Shown: positions 417 to 31,990 of the stretch, one piece after another
Position numbering within the stretch: the first letter of the stretch is position 1
Layout of the letters: the number at the start of each line of letters is the position of its first letter
DNA from: Candidatus Omnitrophota bacterium
GTDB lineage: Bacteria > Omnitrophota > Gorgyraeia > JAGLLT01
DNA: 64,000 nucleotides
Direction of reading: 5' to 3'
Assembly: GCA_030632085.1 (NCBI GenBank)
Contig: DAOVJY010000005.1
Span: forward strand, 37,476-101,475
Position numbers and translations under genes: made by a program
The notes under the pieces: model-generated
The model's input: only the letters and a program-made list of their open reading frames with translations
Told to the model about the DNA's origin: nothing
Database searches by the model: none

Positions 417-449
417 ACCCCCGCTTCTCTTTTTATAAAAAACGGGGGT
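417..449 (-). terminator. Candidate hairpin terminator downstream of the CBM-like gene
   Basis: Inverted repeat ACCCCCG (417-423) / CGGGGGT (443-449), followed on the minus strand by a T-rich tract. The 19-nt loop is long for a classical terminator. Confidence 0.4.
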
Positions 450-467: not shown

Positions 468-1028
468 TTATCTGGTAATTATAAGCTCGGCATCATCAAA
501 AAAGACTTTACCTGTACTGCCCCTTCCTGCTCCATCCGCGTTCCATAACAAGAGAACAAACTTGGCTAAGTCCGTTCCTTCGGGCGCTGTGATATTAATT
601 TTTACTTTTTTCCAGTCGTTTGTACCGCTTAATCTACCGGCTTCCTCGGCCTTTATAATCTCGCCTCCGCGCCAGAATTCCAACTTGAGTATTGCTTGGA
701 CTTCTACCCCATGCTTACCGGCAAGATTTTCGGTTTTTATCCATACACTGCCGCTTAATTGATCTCCCGCGACAACCCCATTAATATCCTGCGCTAAACC
801 TCCCACGATAAAAGGGCCGTTAGCATCGTTTAGGGTTGGAGCGGCGCTGAATCTCCCACCGGGAGTGTGATTTTCAAGCGTGCTGGTTTCCCCTGTAACA
901 CACCACGTAGACCAACCGCCGATATTACCACCTTCAAAGTCTCCATTAGATAGCTCATTGGCTCCTACAATGGTTATTGAAAGTAATAATATTGTAATGA
1001 CAAAGCTGATAATATACATTTTTTTCAT
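468..1028 (-). CDS. Secreted carbohydrate-binding-module-like protein (CBM4/9-type fold)
   Basis: Signal peptide; NGDFEGG...FFDDAELI pattern typical of CBM4_9-type modules; same module type opens the 2481-aa protein. Confidence 0.5.
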   Translation of the reverse strand: MKKMYIISFVITILLLSITIVGANELSNGDFEGGNIGGWSTWCVTGETSTLENHTPGGRFSAAPTLNDANGPFIVGGLAQDINGVVAGDQLSGSVWIKTENLAGKHGVEVQAILKLEFWRGGEIIKAEEAGRLSGTNDWKKVKINITAPEGTDLAKFVLLLWNADGAGRGSTGKVFFDDAELIITR

Positions 1029-1044: not shown

Positions 1045-4000
1045 CTATTCCTGACAAGAAACTATTATTTTCGCCGGAATACTTTTAATTTTTATTTTTT
1101 TTGTTTCATCAACCTTAACCGACCTGCCATTAACTTTTGCCGACAAAACATCCCCATCAAAAGGCACCACAAATATTAAATCGTTAGGACAGCTAATGTT
1201 TCCTGTGATATCGCAGGTAATTGTATAGCGGTTTTTCCTAAATATAAAAGTCATGAATTTATTAAGAGATATTTTAAGGCTATAACTGATATTGCCATAA
1301 TAAGTAGGCAGGTTTTTAACTGTTATCTGATTATCTTCAAGCCAATTATCATCAATGCCTGCCGCCAGATACAAAGTATCATCTCTTTCATAAACAAAAA
1401 GGCTTCTTATAAAATTAGCACATATCGCCCCAATCCAGGTATGCGGCATATCACCTATATATTGAGGCCTTTCTATTAAATCATGAACTACCTCTCCCCA
1501 GTGATTCCAGTTGAGCGGCCTTCTATCTCTTAAAAAATAATTCATCATAATAAGAGCTTTTTCTTTCTCGCCCAACATTAAATACGCTGTAGCTGTTCTT
1601 ATTTCATAAGGAGTATAAGCACTTTTAGCTCCTTCGGGGAGCCGAGGGAGAAGAGTATCCTTATAATATGTATCTAAGGTATACATTAAACCTATATCCA
1701 TAAGATAGCTATCTTCTTCCGCGGGCCAAACCGATATAGCAGTTGAGGTCGCGTCAAAGTCAGCTTTTTCAAAACAGCCGGGAATATTTTTTATACCTCT
1801 TTTTTCCTGAATAAGCTTAATGTTATTTATAAGATTTTTTCTTAAATCATTTTCTTCCTTCTTCATCCAGGCAATTTGATCCTCCCGGCCTAATTCTTTA
1901 GCTATATATTGTCCTTCTTTTAACCCCTTTAATGTCCAGAAATCGTCCCAGAGACTATGTTGAGCCGGAAAATAACCTTCGTGGCTGTTGGATTCAGGTA
2001 AGATGCCATAAAAATATGTATTTTCGTATTGAGGGGTTAGTCTTTGTTTTCTTAAGTTTTCAGTAAACTTAAGTGCTTTTAATACACTATCAAATTTATC
2101 TTCTAAAAATTTCTTGTCTTTTGTAAATCTGTAATATTCTGATATGGCAAAGACATAAGCCCCCTGGCCATCCCATTCCGTCCAGGTTTCAGCCCAACCG
2201 GGCATTTGGCCGTTTCTTTCTAAAATACAGGGGAGTTCTCCATCTGGCTTTTGACAGGTGCTTATCCAATCAAGATACTGCCTAACCTCATCAAAATACC
2301 CGGCCCTCAAAAGAGCGGCCGCCATTACAGCCCCATCTCTTATCCAGGAGCGTTCATAATTTCTAGCGCCGGGTTGCAGAGCAAAATCGTCTCTGTTAAT
2401 TAAAAGATAAATTATATTTGATTTAAATACATCCACAACTTCTTTTTGAGGAATATCTATAGTTATTTTACTTAATTTATTATCCCAATAGTTAATTGTT
2501 TCTGAAAGAATTTTGTTATAGTAAGTAGAAGCGTCAGCGATTTTTATGTTCTGCAGCTCGGATGTATATTTGCGGGGCATATAGAAAAATATATCCCGCG
2601 CTTTACCGGCAGCTAAATTGAATTCAAAACAAACCGCGGCTGTAGCCAATTTTTTAGCATCAAAAGTTGTTTTCTTTAAAGGAAGCTTACCTTTAGAAAT
2701 ATAATCAATTATTTCTCCGTCTTGGCTTTTAATAACCCCAGCGTTTTTAGGCTTGCTTAAAATAATCAGAGCGTCTTTGCCATCAATTCTAATTACTGCC
2801 GGGTCATTATTGATTTTACAGTCAATATTTGATATTTCGCTCATACCGCCATACTGCCAGGGGGGATTTAGCTGTACGGGCCTGATAGCTAAATAGACTT
2901 TTCCTTTTTTAGTTGACGAAGTATCGTTCTTCAGCTTATACCAGGCATAAGTAACAGGCGCACCCTTTTCGCCGTGCGCAAAGAGTGTTTGTTCTAACTT
3001 TAAACCGTTATAATCCCAAACCACAGAAGCTATGGGAAGATAGTTTTTCTTGAGCTTTTGATCAACTTTGCAATCATAAGCTGTGATTAATTTATTATCA
3101 ATATATATGAAAGGCATGATACTGAAACCGTTTTTATACGGTTCAATAGTTCCATTCTCTGAAATAAGGGACTCGTTAACATCAGCATCCACCCCAACAA
3201 CCGTCCAATATTCCTGCTTTTTATATAACCACTTAGGGAAATATCCGGGTAAAGATTCTTCAGCTAAAACTTCGTAATATTTCTGCGGAGTCGCGTGCTC
3301 GTTTTTTCCTTTTATGAAAACTTCGCATAAAGAATATCCCTTCGCGCTTGGCTTGTTACACTTAATTTTTATAAATCTCACATCAACGGGATTAATATAA
3401 ATAAGGTCTTTACCGCCGTTGGGTTTTTTGCTTTTATAAACTTGCTTCCAGTTTGTATTATCGCCGGAAACAACTATTTCATAATCAGCGGCATAGTTTT
3501 TACCCCAGTTTAATTGAAAACCTCCAACGGGCTTTACTTTTTTGAGGTCAATGGCTACCCACTGATATCCTCCTTCACTTGTCGTCCAACAGGTCGTTAT
3601 ATCCCCGTCCATAATATTTGATACCTGCGCGCTATTTCCGGATGAAACAACTACCAGAGGAACGTCTTCGGAGCTTTTTAATTTAATTTCAAATATGGAA
3701 GCTCCCCATGAAGTTGCCCTCTTTTGACAGATAATTTTTACATAGCGGGCTTCTTGGGGCTTAAAATAGATATCATCCGTTTTGCCGTCAGCTCCTTTTA
3801 TCTCAAAAACGACCTTCCAATCTTTGCCATCTAAAGAAAGAAGCACCTGATAGTCCTCACCAAAGGCGGCTTCCCAATAAATAATCACACCCGATATAAT
3901 TTTAGGTTGGTCTAATTCCAATAAAAGCCATTGCGGATCGGAAAACTCACTACTCCAACGCGTAGCCATATTGCCATCAATCGCGTTCCGGGGCCCAAAA

Positions 4001-4107
4001 TTCTCCTGGACAGAAGAAGAGGTCGCTTTAATTTCAGAAAAGGCACACAGAGGCGCCAACAAACAAGAAAAGATTATTAATGCCGTTATCGTTCTTAAAT
4101 ATCGCAT
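1045..4107 (-). CDS. Secreted F5/8-type-C (discoidin) domain protein with (alpha/alpha)6-barrel glycoside-hydrolase-like C-terminal domain
   Basis: Signal peptide; two discoidin-like repeats (NAIDGNMATRWSSEF, SNIMDGDITTCWTT); C-terminal SWIRDGA and HSLWDDFW motifs resembling GH15/GH63-type six-hairpin glycosidases. GH family not resolved. Confidence 0.6.
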   Translation of the reverse strand: MRYLRTITALIIFSCLLAPLCAFSEIKATSSSVQENFGPRNAIDGNMATRWSSEFSDPQWLLLELDQPKIISGVIIYWEAAFGEDYQVLLSLDGKDWKVVFEIKGADGKTDDIYFKPQEARYVKIICQKRATSWGASIFEIKLKSSEDVPLVVVSSGNSAQVSNIMDGDITTCWTTSEGGYQWVAIDLKKVKPVGGFQLNWGKNYAADYEIVVSGDNTNWKQVYKSKKPNGGKDLIYINPVDVRFIKIKCNKPSAKGYSLCEVFIKGKNEHATPQKYYEVLAEESLPGYFPKWLYKKQEYWTVVGVDADVNESLISENGTIEPYKNGFSIMPFIYIDNKLITAYDCKVDQKLKKNYLPIASVVWDYNGLKLEQTLFAHGEKGAPVTYAWYKLKNDTSSTKKGKVYLAIRPVQLNPPWQYGGMSEISNIDCKINNDPAVIRIDGKDALIILSKPKNAGVIKSQDGEIIDYISKGKLPLKKTTFDAKKLATAAVCFEFNLAAGKARDIFFYMPRKYTSELQNIKIADASTYYNKILSETINYWDNKLSKITIDIPQKEVVDVFKSNIIYLLINRDDFALQPGARNYERSWIRDGAVMAAALLRAGYFDEVRQYLDWISTCQKPDGELPCILERNGQMPGWAETWTEWDGQGAYVFAISEYYRFTKDKKFLEDKFDSVLKALKFTENLRKQRLTPQYENTYFYGILPESNSHEGYFPAQHSLWDDFWTLKGLKEGQYIAKELGREDQIAWMKKEENDLRKNLINNIKLIQEKRGIKNIPGCFEKADFDATSTAISVWPAEEDSYLMDIGLMYTLDTYYKDTLLPRLPEGAKSAYTPYEIRTATAYLMLGEKEKALIMMNYFLRDRRPLNWNHWGEVVHDLIERPQYIGDMPHTWIGAICANFIRSLFVYERDDTLYLAAGIDDNWLEDNQITVKNLPTYYGNISYSLKISLNKFMTFIFRKNRYTITCDITGNISCPNDLIFVVPFDGDVLSAKVNGRSVKVDETKKIKIKSIPAKIIVSCQE

Positions 4108-7100
4108 TTGTTAACTCCTTTGTTATTTATATTAACTCTTATTTCCACCGGTAGACTGTCAAAATATATGCCTTCATTTAAAAAGTCAGTATATTGTTTA
4201 CCATTAAGAATTACCTCGTAAGCTCCCGCCAAATTCAACCGGAGCTTAAGAAGGAATCCTTTGGGAGGAGTCGCGTTTCCCGCGACATGTATTTGCAAAC
4301 TTCCCCCTTTTTCCTTTATTGAATAACTTATATTTCCATAATATGTTGGAAAATCTCCAATTGATACCTCCGCTTTTTCCGTAATCCACTTCTCAGGTAT
4401 TCCGTGCCCCAAAACAAGACAACCGTCTTTTTCATAAACAAACAAACTTCTAAAAGAATTAATATATATTGAAGCTACCCAGCTATGCGGTAAATCACCG
4501 ATAAACCACGGTTTGCGATCATCGCTTAATGTCCCTTCCGCCCACTGATTCCAGGCGCGCGGCCTTTGCAAATCAAGATACTGCTCAAGCATTCGTATAG
4601 CTTTATCTCTTTGATTAAAAAGAACAAAAACTTGAGATATCCTTAACGCATATGAGGGATATGACCAATTAGACTTATTTTTTAAGGTTGGTGAAAACCG
4701 GTCCGCCCAAAATATGCCGAACGTATTCAATAATGACGCTTGCGGTAAATATTTTGACTCCTCTGTCGGCCAAACGGCAATTGCTGTTGAAGGCGCGTCA
4801 AAATCACCTCTTTCCGCGCAGCCGGGTATATAATTAATTTTATCTAATTCCTGAACTAATCTAATTGAATCATATAAACATTTTCTAAAACTTTTTATTT
4901 CTTTTTTAGCCCTCTCCGCCAGTTCATCTTCCCCTAAAATTTCAGCTATCTTCCGCGCGTCACTCCACCCCCTAAGGCCCCAAAAATCATCCCAATAACT
5001 ATGCACCCCCGGAGGGGGAAAATAACCTTCATGACTAACAGACAAAGGGAAGATGCCATAAAATCTTTTTTTATCCGCGGTTTGATATTTATCTGTCAAA
5101 TTCTTCTTTCTCAACTTCTCCATACAATCAAGAACGCGCGCTACCACAGGCAACTTGCCTCTAAGCCACTCTTCGTCCTTTGTAAAATAATAATACTGTA
5201 AAACACTAAAGATATACTGCCCCTGACTATCATACTCCTCATAAACACTTTCCCACGCGGGGTCGGGCGTGTTTTCCGCGATCATAATAGGAGGAACTTT
5301 GCCATTAGCTTTAACATAATCGCTAATCCAATCAATATACTCCCTCACCTCTTCCTTGTAACCCATTCTTAAAAGAGCGGCGGAACTTACGCAGGCATCC
5401 CGCATCCATGATTTTTCATAAGCGCCGGAGCCGGCTTGAAGCATAGGACCATCTCTATTAATAAGAATGTAAGCCAAACTGCTTCTTATTGTTTTTAGCA
5501 TCTTTTCATTCGGTATCTGAATACTTACTTTATTTAATTTTTTTCGCCAATAGCTGGTGGTTTCTTTTTCCATGGCGGCAAAATCCTCGCAAAGGTCAGC
5601 TTTTTTACATAATTTTACAAATGAAGAGTTTGCTTTTAGTAAGTCACTTGTTGTAACTTTATTATTCTTTAAAGATATAATAAATAAATACTCCTGTGCT
5701 CTTCTTTCGTCTAATACAAAATCATATTCTAACGCCCCCGAAGCATAACCAAACGCGTCTTCAACCAACTTCTGAGAATTTATTTCCCCTGTTTTTATTT
5801 TATCAACAATATCTCCTTCAATATAAGCTGAAGTATCAAATTTATCCGGAGCTTTTAGAGCAATAATTCTATCTTGTCCATTTATACTTATGATATTATT
5901 TAACCCGCGGAGATTAAGGCTTTTAATCTCTGCCATACCTCCCGCCCATTGCCAAGGCGGATTTACCTGAAACGGCCTTATAGTAAAAAATAATTTACCT
6001 TTTAATTCACGGTTGCTTTTATTTTTAAGAATGTAGCGCAGGCAGGCATAAGAATTACCGTTCCTTCGCGCGGCAAAGATTTCCTGAGAAAAAGTTAATT
6101 CCTCATTCTCCCAATTAACTCGCGGGATAGGCAGATAACCATCTTTTAGAGATTGCGTAATTGCGAAATCAGGAGAAGCCAGGAGCTTATTTTCTAAATA
6201 TATAAAAGGCATCAGAGATGGGCCGCGATTGTATATCTGAATCATGCCGTCTTCACAAATAGTGGCTTCGGCCTCGCCCCCATTAGTTCCGACAATTGTC
6301 CAATAAGCTTGACGGCCGCCTGTCCATTGAGGATAATATTTTTTCCGCGAAGGTTTTGCTTTTCTTTGATAATAACTTTGAGCATCAGCTCTTTTTTTGA
6401 GTAACTTTAAACATGAACCATTTTGAAATAATATCATCGGGCGTTCATTGATCCCTCCCGCTCCCCAAAAATCAAACACTCTGATTGTAAAATTATTTAT
6501 TTCACCGGGATTTAAATAATCTCCCAACAAACAAGCTGTTATGGTCCGGCACATACTGGTAGATTCACAAGACATGCTACCAAACGCTCCCACCCGCCGG
6601 CCATTTATAAAAAGTTCATACGCGTCATCCACGCCGCCAAACATTATGCCCGGCTCACAGCCCGCCCAATTCGCGGGAATAAAAATATCATTCTTATACC
6701 AGGCATAGCCGTCATAGTCGGCATAGCCCTGCTCATCCCAAAATTTTCCAGTTTCTATTTTCTGCCAATCGTCTACGGAATAATTGCTTGAAAACCATTT
6801 GTCTTTAACTCCGGTATTTTTTGGGTCTGTTTTAAAAAACCACTCTCCCTCTAAGGATATAATTTCCCCTGAATTAATCTTATTCAAATCACTAAAACCA
6901 ACTCCCTCGGGGCATACTTCAAAAAGCGAATACCCCCATTCGGTAGCTCTTTTTCTGAAAATAATTTTAATATACCTGACTCTGATTTGTCCAAACGAAA
7001 TTTCCTCACAGCCGCCTTTTCCAAGCGTTTGGTTATAAACAACCTTCCAGTTTTTATTATCAATAGAGACAGCAATTTCATAAGAAACGGCGTAAGCCTC

Positions 7101-7337
7101 CTGCCAATATAATAATAAACCCGTTATTTCTCTAATTTCACCAAAATCCAATAAAAGCCACTGCGGATCGGAAAACTCACTGCTCCAGCGAGTGGCCATG
7201 TTGCCATCAACCGCGTTTTGGGGGCCAAAATTCTCCTGAACAGAAGAAGAAGTAGTTTTAATTTCAGAAAAAGCACATAGAGGCGCCAATAAACAAGAAA
7301 AGATTATTAATACCGTTATCGTTTTTAAATATCGCAT
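4095..7337 (-). CDS. Paralogous secreted F5/8-type-C protein with GH2-N-like jelly-roll insert and (alpha/alpha)6 glycoside-hydrolase-like domain
   Basis: N-terminal ~65 aa nearly identical to the 1045-4107 product; extra sugar-binding-like module (GEWFFKTD...GGVDDAYELFINGRRVG); SWMRDAC and YWDDFWGLRGW motifs. Overlaps downstream paralogue by 13 nt. Confidence 0.6.
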   Translation of the reverse strand: MRYLKTITVLIIFSCLLAPLCAFSEIKTTSSSVQENFGPQNAVDGNMATRWSSEFSDPQWLLLDFGEIREITGLLLYWQEAYAVSYEIAVSIDNKNWKVVYNQTLGKGGCEEISFGQIRVRYIKIIFRKRATEWGYSLFEVCPEGVGFSDLNKINSGEIISLEGEWFFKTDPKNTGVKDKWFSSNYSVDDWQKIETGKFWDEQGYADYDGYAWYKNDIFIPANWAGCEPGIMFGGVDDAYELFINGRRVGAFGSMSCESTSMCRTITACLLGDYLNPGEINNFTIRVFDFWGAGGINERPMILFQNGSCLKLLKKRADAQSYYQRKAKPSRKKYYPQWTGGRQAYWTIVGTNGGEAEATICEDGMIQIYNRGPSLMPFIYLENKLLASPDFAITQSLKDGYLPIPRVNWENEELTFSQEIFAARRNGNSYACLRYILKNKSNRELKGKLFFTIRPFQVNPPWQWAGGMAEIKSLNLRGLNNIISINGQDRIIALKAPDKFDTSAYIEGDIVDKIKTGEINSQKLVEDAFGYASGALEYDFVLDERRAQEYLFIISLKNNKVTTSDLLKANSSFVKLCKKADLCEDFAAMEKETTSYWRKKLNKVSIQIPNEKMLKTIRSSLAYILINRDGPMLQAGSGAYEKSWMRDACVSSAALLRMGYKEEVREYIDWISDYVKANGKVPPIMIAENTPDPAWESVYEEYDSQGQYIFSVLQYYYFTKDEEWLRGKLPVVARVLDCMEKLRKKNLTDKYQTADKKRFYGIFPLSVSHEGYFPPPGVHSYWDDFWGLRGWSDARKIAEILGEDELAERAKKEIKSFRKCLYDSIRLVQELDKINYIPGCAERGDFDAPSTAIAVWPTEESKYLPQASLLNTFGIFWADRFSPTLKNKSNWSYPSYALRISQVFVLFNQRDKAIRMLEQYLDLQRPRAWNQWAEGTLSDDRKPWFIGDLPHSWVASIYINSFRSLFVYEKDGCLVLGHGIPEKWITEKAEVSIGDFPTYYGNISYSIKEKGGSLQIHVAGNATPPKGFLLKLRLNLAGAYEVILNGKQYTDFLNEGIYFDSLPVEIRVNINNKGVNKCDI

Positions 7338-7731
7338 CTACGAGTTCCTTTTTATCTATATTACACTATTTACTTGTTCTATGGCGCGAAAAATTTAAAG
7401 ACTAATAAATAATTTAATTCTTTTAAAGATAAAATAGATCCTGCGGTAATTCAAGGTTTTCCTTCTACGCCTTGCGTAAAATCAGCGCTGCTTAAAAAAT
7501 TGGCTTCAGCTGCTACCGGCCAGCCAGCGGTTAATAATAAAGTTAAAACAATTATTATAAATAAAGCTTTTTTTATTAGTCTACCTCCTTTTGTTTTTTT
7601 GTTTTTTTTTATCTATTTAATACTCTCAATAAAAGAGCCGGTTTTAGGGGGCATTAGTAGTATTTTTTCAACCTAAACCCCGTGAGGACATCTATGCAAA
7701 CGTGTGAATAACTTGTCAAAAAAACACTCCC

Positions 7732-8745
7732 CTATTTAATTGAAGATTCTCTTACAATTAATTTCGATTCGAGGGAAATGTCTTCAACGGATCGCTTTGG
7801 ATCATTAATAATTTTTAATAATAAATCAATGGCTTTCCCTCCAATATCTTGTTGCGGCAACCTTATGGTGGTAAGAGCTGGAGTAAAATATTTACCAGCT
7901 TCCAAATCATCAAAACCCACAACAGCTATATCTTCAGGTATTTTGAGGCCTCTATCCCTTATTGCATTTATGGCCGCAATTGCCATTAAATCATTAGCAC
8001 AAAAAACAGCATCAGGTTTTTCCATATTAAGACATAATATTCTCTTCATTTCTTCATAAGCCTCATTATAGAAAAAATTTCCTTCTCCAACTAGACGTTT
8101 GTCAAATTCAATATCATGTTTTTCCAATGCTTTTTTAAACCCTTCAAAACGCTCAACACCGTCAACCGACATCATTCCGCCGTTAATAACCGCAATTCTT
8201 TTTCTGCCTATATTAACCAGATGATCAACGGCTAATTCAACAGCAGAATAGTTATTAATACCAACAGCATTAACCATGCCGCTGCCGATAAATTTATTTA
8301 AAAACACAAATGGGATTTCTTCTTTTTGAAGCTCTTTGATATTGGCTGGTATTTCTTTATGATAAATAACATTATAAATTAAAACACCATCGACTAACCA
8401 ATTTTTGACTACTTCAAGATATGATCTGCTTTCTTCCAACCAGTAATCTGTAGAGAAAAGCATTAGTCCGTAATTAAGTCTGCGGCAGGTATCAGAGATG
8501 CCTTTAATAATAGGTGCAACATGGAGGTTAACATCAGGAGTAATCAAAGCAAAGGCATTAGTTTTACTTTTTACAAGGCCTCTAGCAATAAGATTTGGGC
8601 GGTAGTCTAAATCCGCCATAATTTTAAGAACTTTTTTTTTGGTCTTATCACTTATAGCAGGATTTTCGTTAATAACTCTTGAGACCGTTGAATGATTAAC
8701 GCCTGCTTTTCTGGCTATGTCTTTAATTGTGGTTCTTTTTTTCAT
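7732..8745 (-). CDS. LacI-family transcriptional regulator
   Basis: N-terminal HTH TIKDIARKAGVNHSTVSRVIN followed by periplasmic-binding-protein-like sugar-binding domain. Confidence 0.9.
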   Translation of the reverse strand: MKKRTTIKDIARKAGVNHSTVSRVINENPAISDKTKKKVLKIMADLDYRPNLIARGLVKSKTNAFALITPDVNLHVAPIIKGISDTCRRLNYGLMLFSTDYWLEESRSYLEVVKNWLVDGVLIYNVIYHKEIPANIKELQKEEIPFVFLNKFIGSGMVNAVGINNYSAVELAVDHLVNIGRKRIAVINGGMMSVDGVERFEGFKKALEKHDIEFDKRLVGEGNFFYNEAYEEMKRILCLNMEKPDAVFCANDLMAIAAINAIRDRGLKIPEDIAVVGFDDLEAGKYFTPALTTIRLPQQDIGGKAIDLLLKIINDPKRSVEDISLESKLIVRESSIK

Positions 8746-8879
8746 AATATTTACCTAAATTGGTAACGTGTGCATATATAAGATTACCAATATAAAGCGT
8801 TTATGTCAAGATAAGAAAATTGATTTTATACTGCAATAAGTTGTCGCTGCATTTTTTGGGAGGATTTTTGAGGTTGTTT

Positions 8880-9551
8880 TTAAATATTTTTAACTTTGGT
8901 CAAGATAAAACCTAAACCAATAATAAATATAATTAAAGTTGCCGGTTCAGGAATAACTCCAAAACCACCCGTTTCAGGGCTGCCAGATAGGGTTGTTAAT
9001 TCCGCGGGAAGCCCTCCTCCCGCCCCAACAGCACCCAGGCCGCCTAATAATATATCATTTAGGGCGCCTTCTATGCCGGCTTTTTCAATGTTTAAATTAA
9101 CATCAAATAGTATTTGATTGTTCTTCCAGATAGGAGAAGCAGAACCATCAATAAGAACCAACGGAGCAAGCTCTCCGCTAATTATTGCCTTAAAAGTTAT
9201 TAAATCGCCATCTTTAGCGCCTTCAATCTTTTGAGTAACGGGATCATCGCCAAATATTTGCATTTTGTATTTTTTGGATGAATCTATTGTAGATAAACCG
9301 ATACACATTTCTCTGCCGGCCGCAAAAGTAAAGGCTCCTATAACACCATGCTCTCCAATCGGAAAATTACTAATTTGTCCCTGAAAGGTCGCGCTATAAT
9401 CTGTAGGGCCGTAAGACAGAGTAAAGCCCGAAGCTGAGTTGCCGGCATCCGGGCCTAAAGAGTTAAAAAAGAGATTGGCCGCTTCTGTTTCAGCAAAGAA
9501 CAAAAGCATTAAGAAGAAAACAGCTAAAATTATAAACTTCTTGTAGCGCAT
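8880..9551 (-). CDS. PEP-CTERM sorting-domain secreted protein
   Basis: Signal peptide; C-terminus VIPEPATLIIFIIGLGFILTKVKNI = PEP motif + TM helix + basic tail. Confidence 0.6.
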   Translation of the reverse strand: MRYKKFIILAVFFLMLLFFAETEAANLFFNSLGPDAGNSASGFTLSYGPTDYSATFQGQISNFPIGEHGVIGAFTFAAGREMCIGLSTIDSSKKYKMQIFGDDPVTQKIEGAKDGDLITFKAIISGELAPLVLIDGSASPIWKNNQILFDVNLNIEKAGIEGALNDILLGGLGAVGAGGGLPAELTTLSGSPETGGFGVIPEPATLIIFIIGLGFILTKVKNI

Positions 9552-9663: not shown

Positions 9664-12600
9664 TTATTGTATGTTTTTAATATATGTTTTATTTTCTATT
9701 TTAATTTTCGACGGTAAAACCTTAAACATTAAATCACCGTCAATTAAAGCTGCCGGTTTTCCGTTAAGTGTTATTATTTTATCTTTCAATTCATCAGGCA
9801 AAGGAATTATAAATCCTTTTGGCGGTTTTGCCGCGCCATTTAATTCAATACTTATGATGTTGTCTTTTTCTGTAATACTATAGGATATATTTCCATATAG
9901 GGTGGGTAGATCTTTTACAAAAACTCCCTCACTAAACCAAGCGAGGTCAACCCCTGCAGCTAAAATAAGTTTGCCTTCCAGTTCATAGGCAAATATAGTC
10001 CTGACCGCGCTTATATAACCTGTACCGACCCAGGTGTGGGGCATGTCTCCTATATAAGAAGGAGCCCTGTTTTTAGCATGTACAACTTCCGCCATATGAT
10101 TCCAGGCATAAGGCCGAACAGAATCTTCGGTAAAATATCTGAGCATTATTAATGCCTTGCCCCTATCTCCCATACGAATAAAGGCGTCTGCCGAGCGAAC
10201 TTCATAAGGTGTAAATGTAACCTCGCCGCCCGGTTTTAGGCGTTTAGTAAAATCATTAAAATATTGATTAAATGTATTATCTAAGTAAGGTTGCGGCAAG
10301 TAATTTTCTTCCCCACAGGCCATAACGGCTATAGCTGTTGAAGTAGCATCAAAATCACCAAACTCCACACAGCCCGGTATATACTTTATGTCATTGTCCT
10401 TTATAACCTGCTTAATAGAAGCGTAAATATCTTTTCTAAAATCTTCTACTTCTTCTTCGAGCCACTTCGCGTTCCTCTGATCATTCATTAATTCAGCTAA
10501 ATACAGGCCATCTTTGAATCCCCTTAATATCCAAAAATCATCCCAATAGCTGTGTTTAGCCGGAAAATAACCCTCGTGGCTGTTAGACAACGGAATAATG
10601 CCATAATAAGCTTTCTTCGCGGGATCGTTTATATATTCCGCGGTCATACGCTCTCTTCTAAGCTCTCTTGAAAATTCAAGCGCCTTGATCACTTTAGGAT
10701 AAGCCTGTTTTAGATAATCATAATCATGCGAGAAGTCCACATATTGCCTTACAGCAAAGACAAATTCTCCCTGAGCATCATATTCCTGGCCTTCACCGGT
10801 TTTATCCGGATTGAAGCCTACAGGATGCCCCCCTTCAAAAAATATAAAAGGTACATACCCATTATTGGCCACATGCGGGGTAATGGCATCAAGCCAGCTT
10901 TTAACTTCATCAATATAAGCCATGCGCAACAAAGCAACGCTGGTCATAGCTCCATCTCTCATCCAAGAGTGATTATAATTTCTGGCACCCGGTTTAATCC
11001 AGGGGCCATCCTTATTTAGAAGAACATAAGCAATGTTAGTTTTCATAACATTTATAAGCCGTTCTTCCGGAATATCAATGGTAAATTTACTCAATAAATT
11101 ACTCCAATAGCGTCTTTCTTTTTCCATTTCCTTTTTAAAGAATCTGTCAGGATTTGCCGCTATTTTTTCAAGCAGTTGATTATTGGAACTCAAAGGAAAG
11201 ACTACAATCACATCTTTATAGCTTCCGGGTTTTAAATTGATGTCGTAAACCGCGCCAAAAGATACCCTGCCCTCGCCGTCTGAAGCTGTAAGCGAAGACG
11301 GTACTTTTCCTTTTTCAAGATAAGAAATAATATCATCGTTATCAAAATTAACAGCTCCCATTTTTTGAGGCTGTGTTACCAAGAAACATTTAGCTTCCCC
11401 GTTTACTTTTATGAGAGACTTCTTATCCCTCTTGATACATATGGCCTCTTTTATGGGGCTAAAACCGCCCCTTTGCCAAATTGGATTAACTTGTATGGGC
11501 CTGGCGGCTAAAGCTAATTTGGCCCGTAAATCATTCTTCTTCTTGTTGGTTAGTCTGTATCTTACCGCCGTATATGCTTCTTTGGGCTCACCAAAAGATA
11601 TAAGCTGAATATTAAGATTCCAATCATTATTCTGCCAGCTTACCCAGGGAAGAGGTAAGATTTTATCTATCAATCCCTGGCTGCACTTACAATCCTCCGC
11701 TGTATACAGCTTGTTATCCGTATAAATAAAAGGCATAACGCTAAATCCTGATTTATATGGTTCAATGGTGCCTGTTTCTGTAATGAGGCTTTCTTCGTCG
11801 CCATCAACAACTCCGGTTATAGTCCAAAATTCCTGAATACGCCGCAACCACATAGGATAATAGCCAGGCTTGGCATCTTTGGCAACCGCCTGATATTCTT
11901 TTAAAGCCGTAGCTTGTTCTTCTTTACTTTTTAACTCAATTTCAGCTAATTGAAACCCTCCTGATTTTTCATTTGGCTTAAGACAATTAATACGTATATA
12001 TTTAACCGGTTTAGCTGAAAAATAAACCCAGTCTTTATTACCATTTCCCTTTTTTGTCTTAAATGCTTCTGCCCAATTTTTACCGTCTTTTGATATATCA
12101 ATTGAATAACTTTTAGCGTAATTATCCAACCAGAGAAGCTGCAGGCCCCCAATTGTTACTGTTTTGGGTAGTTCAAAAGTAATAACGGCTTTATCTTCCC
12201 GGCTTTGCCAATAACTGCTTTTGTCGCCGTCCATAGCAAGCTCGGCAAAACTGGCCTCTGTTGTATTATCAGCCTCTGCCCGAGGGCCATTAGAGCCTTC
12301 ATGAAATTCAATTTCCCAGAATGAAAAACCCCAACCTGTTCCTCTTTGGATACCATTAAAACGCAAACTTTTTACCAATTGGGGCGTAAAATAAATAATA
12401 TCTGTATTGCCGTCGCCATCTTCCGTGCTATAAACAGTTTTAAATTCTTTTCCATCTTCAGATACATCTATTTCATAAATTTCACCATAAGCTGTTTCCC
12501 AGTGGAGCGTTAGGCCGTAAAGCTCTTTGGCTTTCGGAAAATCTATCTGCCAATACTGATCATCTTCAAAGGAGCTGCTCCAGCGAGTACCATAATCGCC

Positions 12601-13110
12601 ATCTACCGCCTTCATTGGGCCCATGTCACCGGCACCCGATGATGCCCCTATAACTGCTTTTTTTGGAGGTTCTTTATTTATGGCAACTTCCCAGAGAGAG
12701 TTGCCCCATTCAGTAGCTTTTTCATTAAAAACAATTTTTACATATTTGGCTTTTTGAGGAAGATTAAAGACAATGATTTCCGAAGCTCCGGATCCTTCTG
12801 TCTGATGATGCGCGTCTATCCAATTTTCAGCATTATTAGATAAAAAGATATTGTAATCCTTAGCGTAAGCCGCCTCCCAGTACAATAAAATGTTTTTTAT
12901 TTCTTCTTCCTGCCCTAAATCAATTAGAAGCCATTGAGGATTTGAAAACTCACTGGCCCAGCGCGTTTGTAAATCGTTATCAATCGCTAGCGCGGCTTTG
13001 AAATCTTTTTCGCTGGATGAAGCGCTTATCTGCCACTCAGCGGCACTTGCCGCATGAAAACAAACAACCGCGCAAATAATTGTTAAAACTATCTTCTTAA
13101 TAATTCCCAC
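9664..13110 (-). CDS. Third paralogue: secreted protein with three F5/8-type-C domains and (alpha/alpha)6 glycoside-hydrolase-like domain
   Basis: Three discoidin-like repeats (ALAIDNDLQTRWASEF, MKAVDGDYGTRWSSSF, ELAMDGDKSSYWQS); C-terminal HSWMRDGA and YWDDFWILRGF motifs shared with the other two paralogues. Confidence 0.6.
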   Translation of the reverse strand: MGIIKKIVLTIICAVVCFHAASAAEWQISASSSEKDFKAALAIDNDLQTRWASEFSNPQWLLIDLGQEEEIKNILLYWEAAYAKDYNIFLSNNAENWIDAHHQTEGSGASEIIVFNLPQKAKYVKIVFNEKATEWGNSLWEVAINKEPPKKAVIGASSGAGDMGPMKAVDGDYGTRWSSSFEDDQYWQIDFPKAKELYGLTLHWETAYGEIYEIDVSEDGKEFKTVYSTEDGDGNTDIIYFTPQLVKSLRFNGIQRGTGWGFSFWEIEFHEGSNGPRAEADNTTEASFAELAMDGDKSSYWQSREDKAVITFELPKTVTIGGLQLLWLDNYAKSYSIDISKDGKNWAEAFKTKKGNGNKDWVYFSAKPVKYIRINCLKPNEKSGGFQLAEIELKSKEEQATALKEYQAVAKDAKPGYYPMWLRRIQEFWTITGVVDGDEESLITETGTIEPYKSGFSVMPFIYTDNKLYTAEDCKCSQGLIDKILPLPWVSWQNNDWNLNIQLISFGEPKEAYTAVRYRLTNKKKNDLRAKLALAARPIQVNPIWQRGGFSPIKEAICIKRDKKSLIKVNGEAKCFLVTQPQKMGAVNFDNDDIISYLEKGKVPSSLTASDGEGRVSFGAVYDINLKPGSYKDVIVVFPLSSNNQLLEKIAANPDRFFKKEMEKERRYWSNLLSKFTIDIPEERLINVMKTNIAYVLLNKDGPWIKPGARNYNHSWMRDGAMTSVALLRMAYIDEVKSWLDAITPHVANNGYVPFIFFEGGHPVGFNPDKTGEGQEYDAQGEFVFAVRQYVDFSHDYDYLKQAYPKVIKALEFSRELRRERMTAEYINDPAKKAYYGIIPLSNSHEGYFPAKHSYWDDFWILRGFKDGLYLAELMNDQRNAKWLEEEVEDFRKDIYASIKQVIKDNDIKYIPGCVEFGDFDATSTAIAVMACGEENYLPQPYLDNTFNQYFNDFTKRLKPGGEVTFTPYEVRSADAFIRMGDRGKALIMLRYFTEDSVRPYAWNHMAEVVHAKNRAPSYIGDMPHTWVGTGYISAVRTIFAYELEGKLILAAGVDLAWFSEGVFVKDLPTLYGNISYSITEKDNIISIELNGAAKPPKGFIIPLPDELKDKIITLNGKPAALIDGDLMFKVLPSKIKIENKTYIKNIQ

Positions 13111-13203: not shown

Positions 13204-14163
13204 TTATCTCACAAAGATGTCATACCCTCTTTGAGGAGGCTGCTTTTCTTCTTTTGAGATTTTTGGCTTGGCTGTTTTCGTTGTCGCGGAAACTGATTTT
13301 GCTTTCGGGTAGGCTTTTTTTACTTCTGTTTTTTTGATTTTGGTTTTCTTTGTTTCATTTACATTGTTGATAAGCAGATAAGACCCTTCAAATGTATAGC
13401 CTCGTTCAATTGATTCCTCTTTTTTAGTTTGTTTTTTAGGTTCATTTGTTTCTTCGCGTTGCCGCCAACTTTTTTTAACAATTTTATCTTGTGCTGATTT
13501 CTCTACATTTTTTTGGGAAGTATACTTCGGTTTATCTTGTGTTTCCTTTACGTCATTAACAACTAAAGAGGAACCTTCAAATACATATCCTTTTTGAATT
13601 TCGGTTGTTTCCGGTTTGGGCATTCTTGCGCGTTTAATCTTTTTAACCCTGGGTATCTTTTTTGCTTTAGGTTGTTTTTGTGTTTTGATTTGTTGCGCCG
13701 CTTTTTTTGTTTCTTTCGTTTCTTTCTTCGGAGCCGCCATCAAATCATAACCTCTTTTAATCTCGGAGCCGCTATCGGTTTTTTCTATTCTCCGGGTTTT
13801 CATTTGCTCTCCGGCTTTGCTGTCACTTTGGCGGATGTACTTTTTCATATTGGGATGGCTGGTTAAATCAAGGGCTTCTTGCCATTGCTCTCTGGCCTCT
13901 TTGAGTTTTCCCTGCTTGTACAACGCGTTGCCTTTCTCAAAATATAACCTGGCTACAGTTTCTCTTTTTTCGTTTTCTTTTGTTATCTTCTGATTTTCTA
14001 TTTCAAGATCAACCCTGTCAATGTTCCCTTGGGCCTGTTTGATAAGTTCTTTTAAGCTTAATGTATAACCGTCGTTACCATTATCATCGCCGCCCGCGAT
14101 AGCTAATCCCGCTAAAGACATGGTGAATATACTTATTAAAATTAAAGCTAATATCTTTTTCAT
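13204..14163 (-). CDS. Secreted Lys-rich protein with TPR-like segment and internal RGY-x-FEGS repeats
   Basis: Signal peptide; repeated RGYDL / KGYVFEGSSLVVNDVKET / RGYTFEGSYLLINNVNET / RGYDIF units. No family assignment. Confidence 0.4.
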   Translation of the reverse strand: MKKILALILISIFTMSLAGLAIAGGDDNGNDGYTLSLKELIKQAQGNIDRVDLEIENQKITKENEKRETVARLYFEKGNALYKQGKLKEAREQWQEALDLTSHPNMKKYIRQSDSKAGEQMKTRRIEKTDSGSEIKRGYDLMAAPKKETKETKKAAQQIKTQKQPKAKKIPRVKKIKRARMPKPETTEIQKGYVFEGSSLVVNDVKETQDKPKYTSQKNVEKSAQDKIVKKSWRQREETNEPKKQTKKEESIERGYTFEGSYLLINNVNETKKTKIKKTEVKKAYPKAKSVSATTKTAKPKISKEEKQPPQRGYDIFVR

Positions 14164-17100
14164 TTCTCCCCGCTCCTTTGTATTTCATTTATTATATTCT
14201 GCCAGAGCTTTCGAGCATCTTCTAATCTTCCTTCCCGGCAATATTTATGGGCTAGCTCGTCTTGTTCTTTTAACTCCCGCTCAAAACAGACTTTCTCTTT
14301 AACATAGTCCTTTTCCTGAATATATAAAGCTCTGGCTTGATTATACACCTGAGCGTAAAGCAGCCTGGCCTCTTTTAGGTAGCCGTCTTTTTGTAATTGT
14401 TTGGCTTTTTTAAGTTGGCTATTAAGTTCTTTAATTAGAATATCGTTTTTCTCGGCGCGCTCAAAAGCCCACTTATCTATATCTTTCCTGAGTTGTTTCT
14501 CTTTGGACTTATCTTTCTCTCTCTCTGACCTGTCGTAGAACTTACCTGTCACCCTGATAAAAGGCCCATGAGATGTGTAATCAAGGTGGGTTAAGTCGTC
14601 ATTAAAGTCGGTAAAGTTATAACCCAGGCCTAATTCGGCGTAGGGGCCGATTTGACGACTGATCTCCAAGAGAGCGCCTTGTTTGTAATCTTTGGCTTGC
14701 TTTTGTTTTAAGAACCTGTATTCGGCTCCTATTTTCCAGTTGTTATCTACAAAATAGTTTAGCCTGTTGACACTTAAAAAGGTCTGGCTTTCGGTAAAAT
14801 CAAAACCTGTCACTCTTTCATCAGTCATTTTAAGGGCTACTTTTTCTACCAGCTGCCATTTTCTCGATAAGTCATAGGCGCCCTCAGCAGCTATAACATG
14901 GGCTTTTTCTTCTTCTATGTTTTCATAGTCATCCTGTGATGAAGGTGAATCATTCCTTAAATATGTATATTTACTAAAGAAGTTCAACTTATCACAGGTA
15001 ACCGGCCTGTAAGCGGCCGCTAAAGAAAATTCCTGATAGAGGCCTTGTCTGGTATCTGCCGTGGTGTTATCGCTTTGAGACAGATTCGCCTTGGCGAAAA
15101 GAGTCGTGTTTTCGTTGGGTTTTAACTCTAGGGCATTATAAGAGAGATACTGCCTGGCATTCTCCCGGGACTTATCAACTCTCAATTCCAGTTTACTGGA
15201 GGCTTTAAACCAGTCATTATCAACATAACTTCCGCCTAAACTTATAGCGTTTCTTTTTGTTTGGGTGCCGTCTAAGTTTTGAACCTCGCCGCGCTCAAAT
15301 TGAACAAAACCGGCGGCCTTATCATTAATATCACCTGATAAGCCGAGGATATTAGTATTGGTCTTTTCGCCTTCTAATAAAGATTTTTCTTCTTCCATTT
15401 TGAATTCCATGCCGTTTTCAAATTTTCTTTTCGTTCCGGTAACCTGAGAATATTTTTTACCTTCTAACTCATCGTGGGAGACGGTATAGGTGTGATATAT
15501 CTCATCGCCCTCATCGCCTTTGGCCCGGGTAGTTAAAGAAAAACTATTATCGGTAGATGAGCTGCCGAAACGGCCTATGGCATAGTCACCTAAAACCTCT
15601 AATTTATCAGTTATGTTATAACTGGCGCCCAAGTTGGTAGCCGCGCCCTTGGTGCCCAGGGCCTGTTTAGCCCTTAAGGTCAGGTTTTCATTTATTTTAG
15701 TTTGGATACCGGCCGTTGTCTGGTTGTTAGTCTCGCCCTTCAGGGTGGTTTGCTGCCCCAGAGATAAAATAACATCTTCGGTTAATTTATAATCGGCCTT
15801 TAAAGCCAGAAGGTCTATGTCCGCGTTAGATTCAGACTCATAGGCGGCAATAACGCCTTCGGCTTTCTGGTGGCGGTATTCGCCGGTAAATTTTAATTTT
15901 TCTAGTTTATGAGTAATCTGAGCTGATGTAGTCTGGGTTTTATTGGCGCCTACCTGCAGGGAGCTTTGAGCGTTGCCGCCATCTATGAGCTCCTGGGTAT
16001 CATGGCGTAAAGCAATGTGGGTATTATCCGTCAGGTTATAAGTTAATTTACCACCGGTAAGCTCTTTACCTTGTTCCTGCGCGGTGCTTATGGAAGAAAA
16101 GTTATCTTCAACTTTCTTATAATAAGCCTCAAGGCCCAGATCTTTGATTATATAGGAACTTAAACTGAGGCCATAGGCTCTTCCTCTGGCGGCTTCATCG
16201 CTTAGAAGCTCGCTAAAAGAAAGGCCGCCATCGGTAGAGATATAGCTGGATAGTTCTTTCGAGCGGCTTTCGGCGTATTCGGCGGTAATGGTGGTTTTAT
16301 CGCCCAGCCTCAAAGAAGCGTCTGTGCCGGCTAACTGATAGTTGTTGTCCACCTGTTCTTCTTTAACATAGGTACCGCCCACCGAGAGATAGTCGCCCAG
16401 CGCCTGTTCAACGCGGCCGCCATAAATACCTCTGTCATATTTGTCTTTTGTTTCATATTCATAGTCTACAGTTACATAGACGGGATTACCGTTAAGTAAA
16501 TAGTTTGAGATAATAGTATCTGACTCGGTTATATGCGATATTGGCTGCCAGAAGATAATCCGGCCGTTATCATAATCTATCTCATAGTCAAAACCTTCGT
16601 CCTGCTCCATAGCGGCCAGAACAAGGCCGCTTATCTTGTCTCTGACTTCAATGGTTATCTTTTCAGACCCCTCTATAACTCTCTTATGTTTAAGGTAGAA
16701 TAAGGAGCCGCCGGTCCCTAAAAACTCAACGTGGGCCGCTTGCTGCTGAGCCCTGGCCTTAAAGGCGATTAAATGGGTTAACGGTTGTCCGAACTTAGTT
16801 TTAGAAACTGACTCATAGTCTAACTTGGCGCCATAGAGGCTGCGTTTAAAGCTCGCTATATCGGTATCGGTAAAGTCGATTACATAATTGCCCCAGGTAA
16901 ATGAAGACTTATCCCATTCAACTAATAAGTAGAGAGCTCCCTGGGTTTGGGTGGCTTGATAATCAATAGTTGAGGTATCTCCATAAATTGGGTAATATTT
17001 ATCCGGATCTAAATTGCGGAAGAGTTCTTTTTGTTTGCGGTCTGTGTCCAGACTTGAAGTGATTAAAAACTTGCCCAGGATTTTGCCTTTTAGATAGTAG

Positions 17101-22066: not shown

Positions 22067-22921
22067 CTATTTGGTAAGGATTTTGATAAGACGATCAAGG
22101 TCTCTGTTGCTGTAATAATCAATTACTATTTTACCTCTTTTTCGTCCTTTGATGATTGAAACTTTGGTGCCAAGATTATTTCGGAGACTCTCTTCCGCGG
22201 CCTTTAGGTAGGAATCAACTTCTTTGACTTTTTTTGGCTTTGTTCCGCTTGCGGTATGTTTTTTAACTAATAACTCCGTTTCTCTTACGGATAAGCCTTT
22301 TTTTGCAATATTTTCAACAAGTATTATTTGTTTGTTCGCGCTCTCGATGGAAAGTAAGGCTCTTGCGTGCCCCATTGAAACTGTTCCACGTGAAACATAA
22401 TCCTGCACTACAAGCGGTAACTTAAGCAAGCGTAATGAATTAGCAATCGTTGATCTGTTCTTGCCTACAGCATCAGAAACGTTTTCTTGAGATAAGTTAA
22501 ACTCATTTATAAGGCGTTCGTAAGCGTGGGCTTCTTCTATAGCGTTGAGCTCCTGCCTTTGTATATTCTCAACCAAAGACAACTCTAATGCTTCTTTATC
22601 CTTAACGTGCCTAATAATAACAGGTGCCTTTGCTTGCCCCAGCTCTTTAAGTGCCCGATACCTTCTTTCACCTGCTATTAATTCATATTTTTGCTCTCCC
22701 GCGCCACTTCTTAAAGGGCGAACAATTAAAGGCTGTACTATTCCCTTCTCTTTTATCGATGAAACAAGCTCTTCATGCTTGGAGGCATCAAAATTCATTC
22801 TTGGCTGAAATCTGCCCGGCTCAAGCAATTTAATGTCAACTTCTTTTATTGTCTGTTGAGAGCCTTCTGCTTTTTTGGGTATTAAGGCCTCAATTCCCCT
22901 TCCAAGCGCTTTCTTCTTCAT
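22067..22921 (-). CDS. parB: Chromosome partitioning protein ParB
   Basis: ParB/Spo0J box GERRYRA, HTH region, adjacent to parA and parS. Confidence 0.9.
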   Translation of the reverse strand: MKKKALGRGIEALIPKKAEGSQQTIKEVDIKLLEPGRFQPRMNFDASKHEELVSSIKEKGIVQPLIVRPLRSGAGEQKYELIAGERRYRALKELGQAKAPVIIRHVKDKEALELSLVENIQRQELNAIEEAHAYERLINEFNLSQENVSDAVGKNRSTIANSLRLLKLPLVVQDYVSRGTVSMGHARALLSIESANKQIILVENIAKKGLSVRETELLVKKHTASGTKPKKVKEVDSYLKAAEESLRNNLGTKVSIIKGRKRGKIVIDYYSNRDLDRLIKILTK

Positions 22922-23178
22922 GTTAGGTCTCCGTAGTTATTAACAAATTATTCAACTAAACAATATTTGTAGTTGCTCTCATAAATAAAAAAAGGCTTAA
23001 CACAAATATAACAGCCAGTGCAATTGCTAAACAAGCAAGGCCATTGCCCTTTCTATTATTCAAAGACGTGTCGCGAAACGCTAAAACCGCAAACAAAAAG
23101 GCGAGCACGGCCTTCTCTGTACCCAGAAACTGCACATAACAACTTAAGCCTAAAAGTAGGGCAGCTATAGCAAAAGCA

Positions 23179-25897: not shown

Positions 25898-25915
25898 TCC
25901 TTAGTCTCTTTTCTT

Positions 25916-26161: not shown

Positions 26162-26200
26162 CGAGCGCCTTTATAACGCCCGCCACTTTTATTTTTCATT

Positions 26201-29187: not shown

Positions 29188-29191
<4 letters not shown>
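28097..29191 (+). CDS. dnaN: DNA polymerase III beta sliding clamp
   Basis: Position after dnaA; three-domain clamp length (364 aa) and sequence character. Confidence 0.9.

Positions 29192-31990
<2,799 letters not shown>

Follow-up and report, generated by a model that had tools for sequence, protein, structure and literature searches.

How two neighbouring genes come to share an almost identical beginning when the rest of their sequence has diverged is the question raised by a locus of secreted glycoside-hydrolase (GH)-like genes in a Candidatus Omnitrophota bacterium. The window analysed here is a stretch of 64 kb (64,000 nucleotides, nt) from contig DAOVJY010000005.1; all coordinates refer to the whole window, and all genes of the locus lie on its minus strand. 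A preliminary description of this DNA attributed the shared 5' ends to recent duplication or gene conversion in an expanding glycan-utilisation locus. We found instead that the shared block is probably the footprint of non-allelic homologous recombination between paralogous secreted glycosidase genes, here called A and B, with deletions following. The genes concerned and the two copies of the block are as follows.

1045..4107, minus strand: gene A, 1020 amino acids (aa), with a signal peptide, two CBM32 (F5/8 type C) domains and a C-terminal catalytic module of ~750 aa.
4095..7337, minus strand: gene B, a chimera of 1080 aa, A-type in codons 1-63 and B-type in codons 64-1080, with a signal peptide, one CBM32, a GH2_N-like sugar-binding domain and a catalytic module as in A.
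9664..13110, minus strand: paralogue C, 1148 aa, with three CBM32 domains and the catalytic module; it lies outside the block.
3919..4107, minus strand: copy of the block in A, coding nt 1-189.
7149..7337, minus strand: copy of the block in B, coding nt 1-189.

The two genes are glycoside-hydrolase-like, as first described, and the block covers the signal peptide (approximately codons 1-24) and the first 39 mature residues, which begin the first discoidin (CBM32) domain. In codons 1-63, 170 of the 189 nt are the same in A and B (89.9%), in agreement with the ~90% originally reported, and the intervals given then (3900-4107 and 7130-7337) are right to within ~20 nt. The 19 differences fall in 17 codons, of which 12 differ only synonymously and five change the amino acid; 14 of the 19 differences are synonymous. 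They are mostly transitions and run in both directions, with adenine in A at two of the 19 sites and in B at six, and the longest exact run between the copies is 21 nt. Beyond the block A and B have ~50% nt identity and 38% protein identity, and divergence is already 48% over nt 190-330. A maximum chi-square test places the change-point at nt 191, with a value reached by none of 2000 permutations. The 3' edge is sharp, at 3919 and 7149, between codons 63 and 64; on the other side, similarity extends ~27-38 nt upstream of both ATG codons, across the ribosome-binding site. A BLAST search of the window against itself pairs 3874..4134 with 7104..7363 (84% over 262 nt, E 2e-73) and yields no third copy of the block in the 64 kb; paralogue C, with 39-52% nt identity in that region, lacks it. 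Pairwise alignment of the three paralogues thus gives a sharp block of identity in A and B and divergence that is not uniform, and the sharply bounded identity with a supported breakpoint that marks a gene-conversion tract is present.

To assign the two parts of B we compared the locus with seven related metagenomic loci, designated by L numbers. The relatives have an 11-gene layout, C-P1-B-x180-LacI1-PEP210-LacI2-PEP214-(y)-A-CBM, followed by an epimerase gene; it is whole in L001 and in L006/L007, and L003 and L009 show the parts that their contigs hold. Gene A of these loci is ~79-80% identical to A of the window, and A orthologues overall (L001, L003, L004, L006, L011) have 79-90% aa identity. 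We take this layout as ancestral. The window has no x180, LacI1, PEP210 or y anywhere, and its locus consists of six genes and a pseudogene stub. With six genes against 11 (or the visible parts of the 11) in its relatives, the locus has contracted, and the proposal of an expanding locus does not hold.

A orthologues with an intact 5' end (L001, L003, L004, L006, L007, L009) have a 5' end of the block type, and gene A of L011 matches the block from nt 72 onward. In relatives the N-terminus of A reads M(R/S/K)...P(L/M)CAFS.I.AT(S/A)SSVQE...DPQW(L/I)(L/Q)LEL. B orthologues (L001, L006, L009, proteins P0068, P0076 and P0079, and others) have a different and mutually conserved N-terminus, in which an unrelated signal peptide is followed by ..I(S/T)ASS..E....PQN..DNNL.SRWSS...D.QW..IDF; B-type proteins at a greater distance have B-type N-termini as well. 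B of the window is A-type through ..DPQWLLL and B-type from DFGEIREITGLLLYWQE (codon 64, DFGEIREI..) onward. Within the block its distance is 0.10 to A of the window and 0.23-0.34 to A orthologues, and B orthologues cannot be aligned to it; downstream of the block it is B-type, so that the two parts of the gene are phylogenetically incongruent. As A orthologues carry the block and B orthologues have their own 5' ends, B of the window is chimeric and the A lineage was the donor. A itself is collinear with its orthologues from -27 to the stop codon, which makes the transfer non-reciprocal, with an unchanged donor.

The crossover lies at 7149|7148, between codons 63 and 64, 3' of a motif, RWSSEFSDPQW, that is common to all paralogues. 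This motif is encoded by the sole DNA-level stretch common to A- and B-type genes, CGCTGGAGCAGTGA.TTTTC.GA...CA.TGGCTT. The crossover is ~12 nt 3' of this stretch, which is present in the A- and B-type genes of relatives, as expected of an unequal crossover in or beside conserved sequence. The body of B is 64-67% aa identical to its orthologues, a lower value than the 79-80% of A, and acquisition of the B body by horizontal transfer from a distant donor was considered but rejected, since B orthologues have no higher identity to one another (65-67%), which means simply that B evolves faster.

Which of the two copies lies in its original place can be read from the flanking sequence. A BLAST search against L001 matches window positions 7376..7144 to the upstream region and 5' end of the A orthologue, not of the B orthologue. 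The features that bear on the context of the two genes are the following.

7338..7447, minus strand: ancestral upstream region of A, now before B, identified by alignment with the A-upstream regions of five relatives.
7451..7576, minus strand: 41-codon remnant, now a pseudogene, of the PEP-CTERM/CBM-like gene 'PEP214', its start changed from ATG to ATA.
7732..8745, minus strand: LacI-family regulator, orthologue of 'LacI2', with Pfam LacI and Peripla_BP matches.
8746..8879, minus strand: P1-LacI2 intergenic region with a third junction, where B-x180-LacI1-PEP210 was deleted from its ancestral place.
8880..9551, minus strand: PEP-CTERM protein P1, orthologue of the gene next after C in all relatives.
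4108..4134, minus strand: remnant of A's own upstream region, with ribosome-binding site AAGGAG at 4115..4120, now inside the 3' coding end of B.
4127..4134, minus strand: B/A deletion junction, a TAATATAA microhomology at about -27 of A.
468..1028, minus strand: CBM4_9-like secreted protein, downstream of A, with a weak Pfam CBM_4_9 match.

The region before B aligns with five A-orthologue intergenic regions to about -110. The PEP214 stub, in the 394-nt interval between LacI and B, has 51% identity to residues 1-39 of PEP214 of L001 (blastp, E 5e-10); in relatives PEP214 follows LacI2, and L013, a more distant locus with the same arrangement as the window, has the stub too, decayed differently. 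The LacI protein of the window has 72-87% aa identity to LacI2 and 29% to LacI1. At the edges of the locus, P1 has 58-68% aa identity to P227 of L001 and to a 241-aa protein of L006, and orthologues of the CBM4_9-like gene stand next after A in L001, L003, L005, L006 and L011, so the position of that gene is ancestral. The B copy of the block thus occupies the site where the 5' end of A used to be. A recipient of gene conversion keeps its own flanks; here the ancestral context of A lies upstream, and x180, LacI1 and PEP210 are gone. What we found is the composition of an unequal-crossover chimera, in which the 5' part of the hybrid has the upstream context of the donor and the intact parent lies downstream. 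Since the B copy stands in the context of A and the A copy is joined to the 3' end of B, duplication and deletion steps were involved. Of the duplication or conversion first proposed, non-reciprocal transfer between paralogues is borne out; simple conversion in place is not.

Alignment with the upstream regions of A orthologues and the 3' ends of B orthologues places the remnant and the junction in 4108..4134. At the TAATATAA site, the native 3' end of B (in L011, ..TTTAATATAAGT..) resembles the -10 region of A (..GTATAATATAAA..). B orthologues stop ~10 codons earlier than B of the window, whose last 12 codons run through the ribosome-binding site and ATG of A, giving an overlap of 13 nt between the genes. 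The third junction lies in 8746..8879, which aligns to the PEP210-LacI2 intergenic regions from nt 36 (L001, L006) or nt 52 (L009), with local alignment scores of 55-94 against ~18 for a shuffled null. Its first ~15 nt are like the start of the P1-B intergenic region of L006, by eye only, and local alignments of 8746..8879 with the P1-B regions of relatives were not above the shuffled null. In the relatives, the native B promoter and LacI2 promoter regions look paralogous by eye (AAAGCAA.TTT..T.TCTTGACATA, a likeness unscored against a null; L001 1375..1522, L009 198..345 and 5882..6179). Judged from this likeness, a direct repeat formed by the two promoters could have mediated the deletion of B-x180-LacI1-PEP210.

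We infer the order and type of the steps as follows. A crossover at the 3' edge of the conserved stretch would have joined the upstream region, ribosome-binding site, signal peptide and 39 residues of A to B from codon 64 on. The simplest route would be an unequal crossover with the duplication product ...y-[A5'::B3']-x180-...-y-A; equivalently, a long patch may have been copied from the LacI2 promoter through A+189, with the paralogous B and LacI2 promoters as its left anchor. Because the hybrid coexists with an intact A, either a duplication product or a patch transfer with separate deletions is required. Three deletions would then have removed the original B-x180-LacI1-PEP210, most of PEP214 together with y, and the interval from the B stop region (x180..y) to about -27 of A, the last at the TAATATAA microhomology, leaving a compact LacI2 / chimeric-B / A / CBM unit.

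Several observations weigh against this reading. Searches of 5.8 billion proteins and of the GTDB genomes did not reveal a genome with the duplication intermediate, and the window contains no second x180...y copy, so that the duplicated segment must be assumed to have been deleted. With no intermediate, and with the nearest B body outside the chimera-bearing lineages only 67% identical, parsimony is the basis for the order of the steps. The contig of L011 does not reach the 5' end of B, and plain conversion in place could therefore have been the first step. The phylogenetic signal of LacI2 is mixed: the aa identity of the window LacI2 is 87% to that of L009 (6180..7193) but 72-74% to the LacI2 proteins of L001, L003 and L006, whose mutual identity is 88%, and A and B have no such affinity to L009. 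The pattern points to recombination among lineages inside the locus, which may have contributed to the present arrangement. A promoter consensus scan did not discriminate in this AT-rich DNA (26 sites against 29.5 expected), and we have therefore relied on cross-species conservation of upstream regions. Finally, the quartet-informative sites considered below are not decisive for a later homogenisation.

We estimated the age of the event from synonymous divergence (dS), which in the block is 0.44, with a nonsynonymous divergence (dN) of 0.035 and a dN/dS ratio (omega) of 0.08. For comparison, dS is 0.38 between A and its orthologue in L011, the closest relative by gene A (90% nt identity), and 0.48 between chimeric B and its counterpart in L013 (omega 0.13). 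Since dS of the block is similar to that of orthologues in relatives 10-13% diverged (0.38-0.48), and since the chimera is also present in L013 (87% identity), the event is old and not, as first supposed, recent. Over nt 72-189, A and B of the window and A of L011 are equidistant (14, 12 and 14 differences of 118). The chimera predates the split between the window and L013 and is roughly as old as the split from L011, and chimeric B is maintained by purifying selection.

These distances bear on the alternative that fares best, although we regard it as doubtful: ongoing concerted evolution, in which repeated conversion keeps the 5' ends alike and the block is simply the current tract. The signal-peptide segment has the pattern that this would produce. 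In nt 1-71, A and B of the window differ at five sites, whereas the L013 copies differ from the window copies at 16-23 sites (17 between the A genes, 22 between the B genes) and from each other at 26, a contrast that is significant by Fisher's exact test (p from 0.0095 to 3e-5) and fits at least one later conversion limited to this segment. The rest of the block behaves differently. In nt 72-135 all distances are 4-8, with no contrast, and over nt 72-189 the two copies are as diverged as orthologues (14 versus 9-12 of 118); the overall dS of the block is 0.44, the two copies in L013 are 23% apart, and the upstream regions group by position and not by genome. The data thus fit no more than one additional event. 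Relative to the window copies, those of L013 show no greater distance to outgroups, and quartet-informative sites for later homogenisation split 5:3:3. Taken together, nt 1-71 were probably homogenised once more by gene conversion in the window lineage after the split from L013.

Gene A of L011 offers a further case of change in the same segment: unrelated sequence that matches nothing in the compared loci has taken the place of its upstream region and of nt 1-71, which encode the signal peptide, with the breakpoint at nt 71/72, exactly at the start of the conserved ATSSSVQENF motif. L011 still carries B-x180-LacI1. Within L011 2127..6670, PEP210-LacI2-PEP214-y have been replaced by genes of 782, 376 and 217 aa. 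The A5'::B chimera, the replacement in L011 and the apparent re-homogenisation of nt 1-71 would all fit a reading in which the 5' module of this enzyme family, made up of the promoter-proximal region, the ribosome-binding site and the signal peptide, is exchanged repeatedly as a cassette. We consider that reading unlikely; in it, exchange would be anchored at ATSSSVQENF (nt ~72) and RWSSEFSDPQW (nt ~150-185). If true, such a cassette would let lineages rewire the regulation and export of single paralogues while streamlining the locus.

Plain short-tract conversion, in which B stayed in place and ~230 bp (-39..+189) were copied into it from A before later, unrelated rearrangements, is common between tandem paralogues, and a non-reciprocal transfer with A intact and both edges sharp would be its natural product; the first step in the common ancestor could even have looked so, the 5' end of B in L011 being out of view. 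We nevertheless judge it quite improbable, as the A-type homology does not end at -39 but passes on through the promoter region, the terminator arm and the PEP214 stub to LacI2. The left edge of the A copy, moreover, is a deletion junction with the 3' end of B and not the end of a tract, and the upstream regions of B and A in relatives have no similarity that could anchor a 5' tract end.

An artefact of assembly, either a chimeric join or a collapsed repeat in a metagenome-assembled genome, had to be considered given the metagenomic source, and its probability is negligible. The two copies differ at 19 of 189 sites with no exact run beyond 21 nt, and purifying selection acts on both open reading frames (ORFs), neither of which is interrupted. 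An assembly of the same sample that was deposited separately (L002/L012) shares the junctions and has two mismatches in 14.1 kb, and the same arrangement with identical junctions is found in L014, from a sister sample (96.4% nt identity), and in L013, from a different study and assembled with SPAdes (87%). Identical junctions in two other samples, at 96% and 87% identity, exclude an artefact, and with it the assembly collapse against which the preliminary description had cautioned. The same negligible probability attaches to conservation of the block as a functional element at the nucleic-acid level, whether a 5' mRNA structure or a regulatory site, and to the template and variable repeat pair of a diversity-generating retroelement: DNA identity confined to a 5' region could reflect constraint on RNA, but B orthologues lack the block, A orthologues differ by about 23-35%, 14 of the 19 differences are synonymous, as protein-level constraint predicts, and the differences are not confined to adenines as those of a retroelement would be.

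Recombination between A and B, followed by deletions, has also changed the sequences from which the two genes would be expressed. The elements concerned are these.

7345..7350, minus strand: ribosome-binding site AAGGAA of B.
7360..7365, minus strand: -10-like TGTAAT upstream of B (TATAAT in orthologues).
7383..7388, minus strand: degenerate TGCACA box upstream of B.
7431..7447, minus strand: 3' arm of the terminator of the upstream gene.
8797..8809, minus strand: stretch holding TTGACA of the putative LacI2 promoter, identified by conservation, with a 17-nt spacer.
8781..8789, minus strand: TGGTAATCT of the same putative promoter.
8759..8775, minus strand: conserved box ATGCACACGTTACCAAT, just downstream of the putative LacI2 promoter.
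417..449, minus strand: terminator-like hairpin of the intrinsic type, 13 pairs and a T run, by consensus scan only.

Upstream regions of A orthologues conserve TGCACA, a 17-nt spacer and TATAAT, then AAGGAG. Before B of the window this arrangement reads CGCGCC-17-TGTAAT-AAGGAA, and before A only the ribosome-binding site survives. B would accordingly be served by the former upstream region and signal peptide of A, promoter function being suggested by conservation only, and A's own promoter, by the same comparison, appears to be lost. As A starts 13 nt before the stop of B and seems to have no promoter of its own, it is probably co-transcribed with B and translationally coupled to it. The consensus scan gave no terminator-like site between B and A or between A and the CBM gene and a strong one after the CBM gene, at 417..449, and B, A and the CBM gene are likely to form one transcript driven from the former upstream region of A. 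For export, A and B would each rely on a Sec signal peptide, the two being nearly identical.

The box ATGCACACGTTACCAAT is present in the window, L001, L006 and L009 (TTGCAC.. in L001 and L006), and the arm TTACCAAT of the window copy pairs with ATTGGTAA. All A-orthologue promoters have the TGCACA half of the box at their -35 position. We regard the box as a candidate LacI2 operator; the degenerate copy before chimeric B (CGCGCC) might then mean loss of repression.

The identity of the enzymes rests on their domains and predicted fold. CBM32 is recognised with confidence by Pfam PF00754 (F5_F8_type_C; A 150.6, B 83.9 and C 190.5 bits, gathering cut-off 28.2) and by matches in the PDB up to E 2e-17. 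Compared with the catalytic module of A, that of B has 38% identity and that of C 41%, and all curated cut-offs for these modules are missed: Pfam GH15 gives 16.7 bits against a cut-off of 22, for B only; TIGR01577 gives E 2e-18 and 66.4 bits against 820.7, a partial similarity to the hidden Markov model; and Bac_rhamnosid6H is below its cut-off. A sequence search of the catalytic part against the PDB gave marginal matches only (MmpH, E 0.007; GH100 invertase, E 0.23), and a profile search gave CBM32 matches and one GH94 stretch (E 2e-5).

As the sequence searches were marginal, a search by fold was needed. An exact-sequence look-up of protein A was empty, and the representative of its 100%-identity cluster, P0001, was used in its place. 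An AlphaFold2 model was built on 40 homologues for residues 271-1020 of A (750 residues; the catalytic module of A is window 1048..3297, and residue numbers below refer to the modelled segment). The model, with a predicted local distance difference test score (pLDDT) of 94.8, has the order beta-sandwich, (alpha/alpha)6 barrel, beta-sandwich, with the helices spanning residues 253-634 and the barrel preceded by a beta-sandwich, as in the GH15 fold. The best Foldseek matches are GH94 phosphorylases, dextran dextrinase, GH116 and GH65 (E 1e-12 to 3e-19), and matches to solved structures have TM-scores (template modelling) of 0.5-0.6 at 10-14% identity. Residues invariant in the 40-sequence alignment are W318, R320, D321, S438-H439-E440-G441-Y442, W450-D451, D513, D515, E602, D616, P618, H619 and W621; as possible catalytic residues, E374, E440, E602, D321 and D451 are invariant in the homologues. 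An invariant SW(I/M)RD(G/A) segment resembles the WxRD segment of GH15.

On the predicted structure these are six-hairpin glycosidase-like enzymes with a distant GH15-like (alpha/alpha)6 fold and without family assignment. The predicted architecture of beta-sandwich, (alpha/alpha)6 barrel and beta-sandwich is the same as in GH15 glucoamylase and trehalase and in GH94, GH65 and GH116; unlike these, the window enzymes have N-terminal CBM32 arrays and Sec signal peptides. With B as query, 589 homologues were found at E <= 1e-100, mostly from uncultivated phyla; those with a label come from Omnitrophota, Elusimicrobiota, Aureabacteria and similar groups, at identities of at most 45%. No solved structure is more than 14% identical, and the family is a candidate for a new CAZy family.

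Other features of the window may be noted. The glycan locus ends ~13 kb from dnaA, in a chromosomal origin neighbourhood at 22067..34460 in which parB, parA and yidC are followed by dnaA (26547..27893), dnaN, gyrB and gyrA. Between the locus and this region, within 13204..21605, the gene for a giant secreted or outer-membrane-like protein of 2481 aa, with a TTG start, has a 4-nt overlap with that for a lysine-rich protein of 319 aa in which (R/K)GY.F motifs are repeated; L006 has an equivalent giant/lysine-rich pair (3185 aa and 318 aa) upstream of C. A 7-nt tandem repeat, CTATCCG, forms a 49-nt stretch at 17906..17954, with an inverted copy at 58591..58639. Further along lie two tRNA-Ser genes, with anticodons tga (37295..37382) and cga (56608..56695); their leaders of ~100 nt each (regions 37171..37382 and 56505..56695) are 84% identical and have an internal repeat of ~33-53 nt spaced 62 nt. 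Between them are genes for a large serine recombinase (37368..39053, minus strand), a DNA methylase (40528..42582) and a type III restriction res-like helicase (42584..45118), and the ~19-kb stretch bounded by the tRNA-Ser repeats may be an integrated island.

Gene conversion and concerted evolution of paralogues are general phenomena in bacteria, with the tuf genes and rRNA operons as examples, and the subject was reportedly reviewed by Santoyo and Romero in 2005. The case described here is like gene conversion in its non-reciprocal, sharply bounded tract of high identity, and the possible homogenisation of nt 1-71 fits; it is unlike classical concerted evolution in that the recipient is outside its original context and the tract is as old as species-level splits. 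A closer parallel is the lpl cluster of Staphylococcus aureus (Tsuru & Kobayashi 2008, PMC2568036), where recombination occurs at a conserved stretch inside the ORFs of tandem paralogues. This gives the 5' and 3' parts of an ORF different histories and drives duplications and deletions, and the unit that moves consists of the 3' end of one ORF, the intergenic region plus the next ORF's 5' end. The likeness is in homologous recombination at a short conserved intragenic stretch within a cluster of tandem paralogues. The differences are that the stretch is central in lpl and near the 5' end in the window (codons ~50-63, in CBM32), and that lpl is a population of shuffled variants whereas the window has one chimera, with the intergenic unit deleted and the ORFs overlapping. 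The window family, moreover, is one of secreted glycosidases in an uncultivated bacterium.

Chimeras of Escherichia coli icd/icdC and manB/cpsG that arose with large deletions in evolution experiments (Maddamsetti & Orman 2026, PMC13626634) are likewise products of recombination between paralogues that gave an in-frame hybrid and the loss of intervening genes. Those hybrids are deletion products that replace both parents, whereas the hybrid in the window, A5'::B3', stands beside an intact donor A.

The locus adds one more case to a known class of events. It is unexceptional as such and well resolved, and, the mechanisms being textbook ones, general understanding is unchanged by it. Its value is as a natural example of the remodelling of a gene cluster, with both junctions of the chimeric gene placed to the base, a donor and a direction, a stub that marks the ancestral context, and a relative age. 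It also draws attention to an enzyme family that is widespread: its homologues number in the hundreds and come from Omnitrophota, Elusimicrobiota, Planctomycetota and further groups, most of them uncultivated. Near-identical 5' ends of neighbouring paralogues need not mean recent duplication or the growth of a locus; here the block goes together with five lost genes, including one for a regulator, and with one gene's capture of another's signals for expression and secretion.

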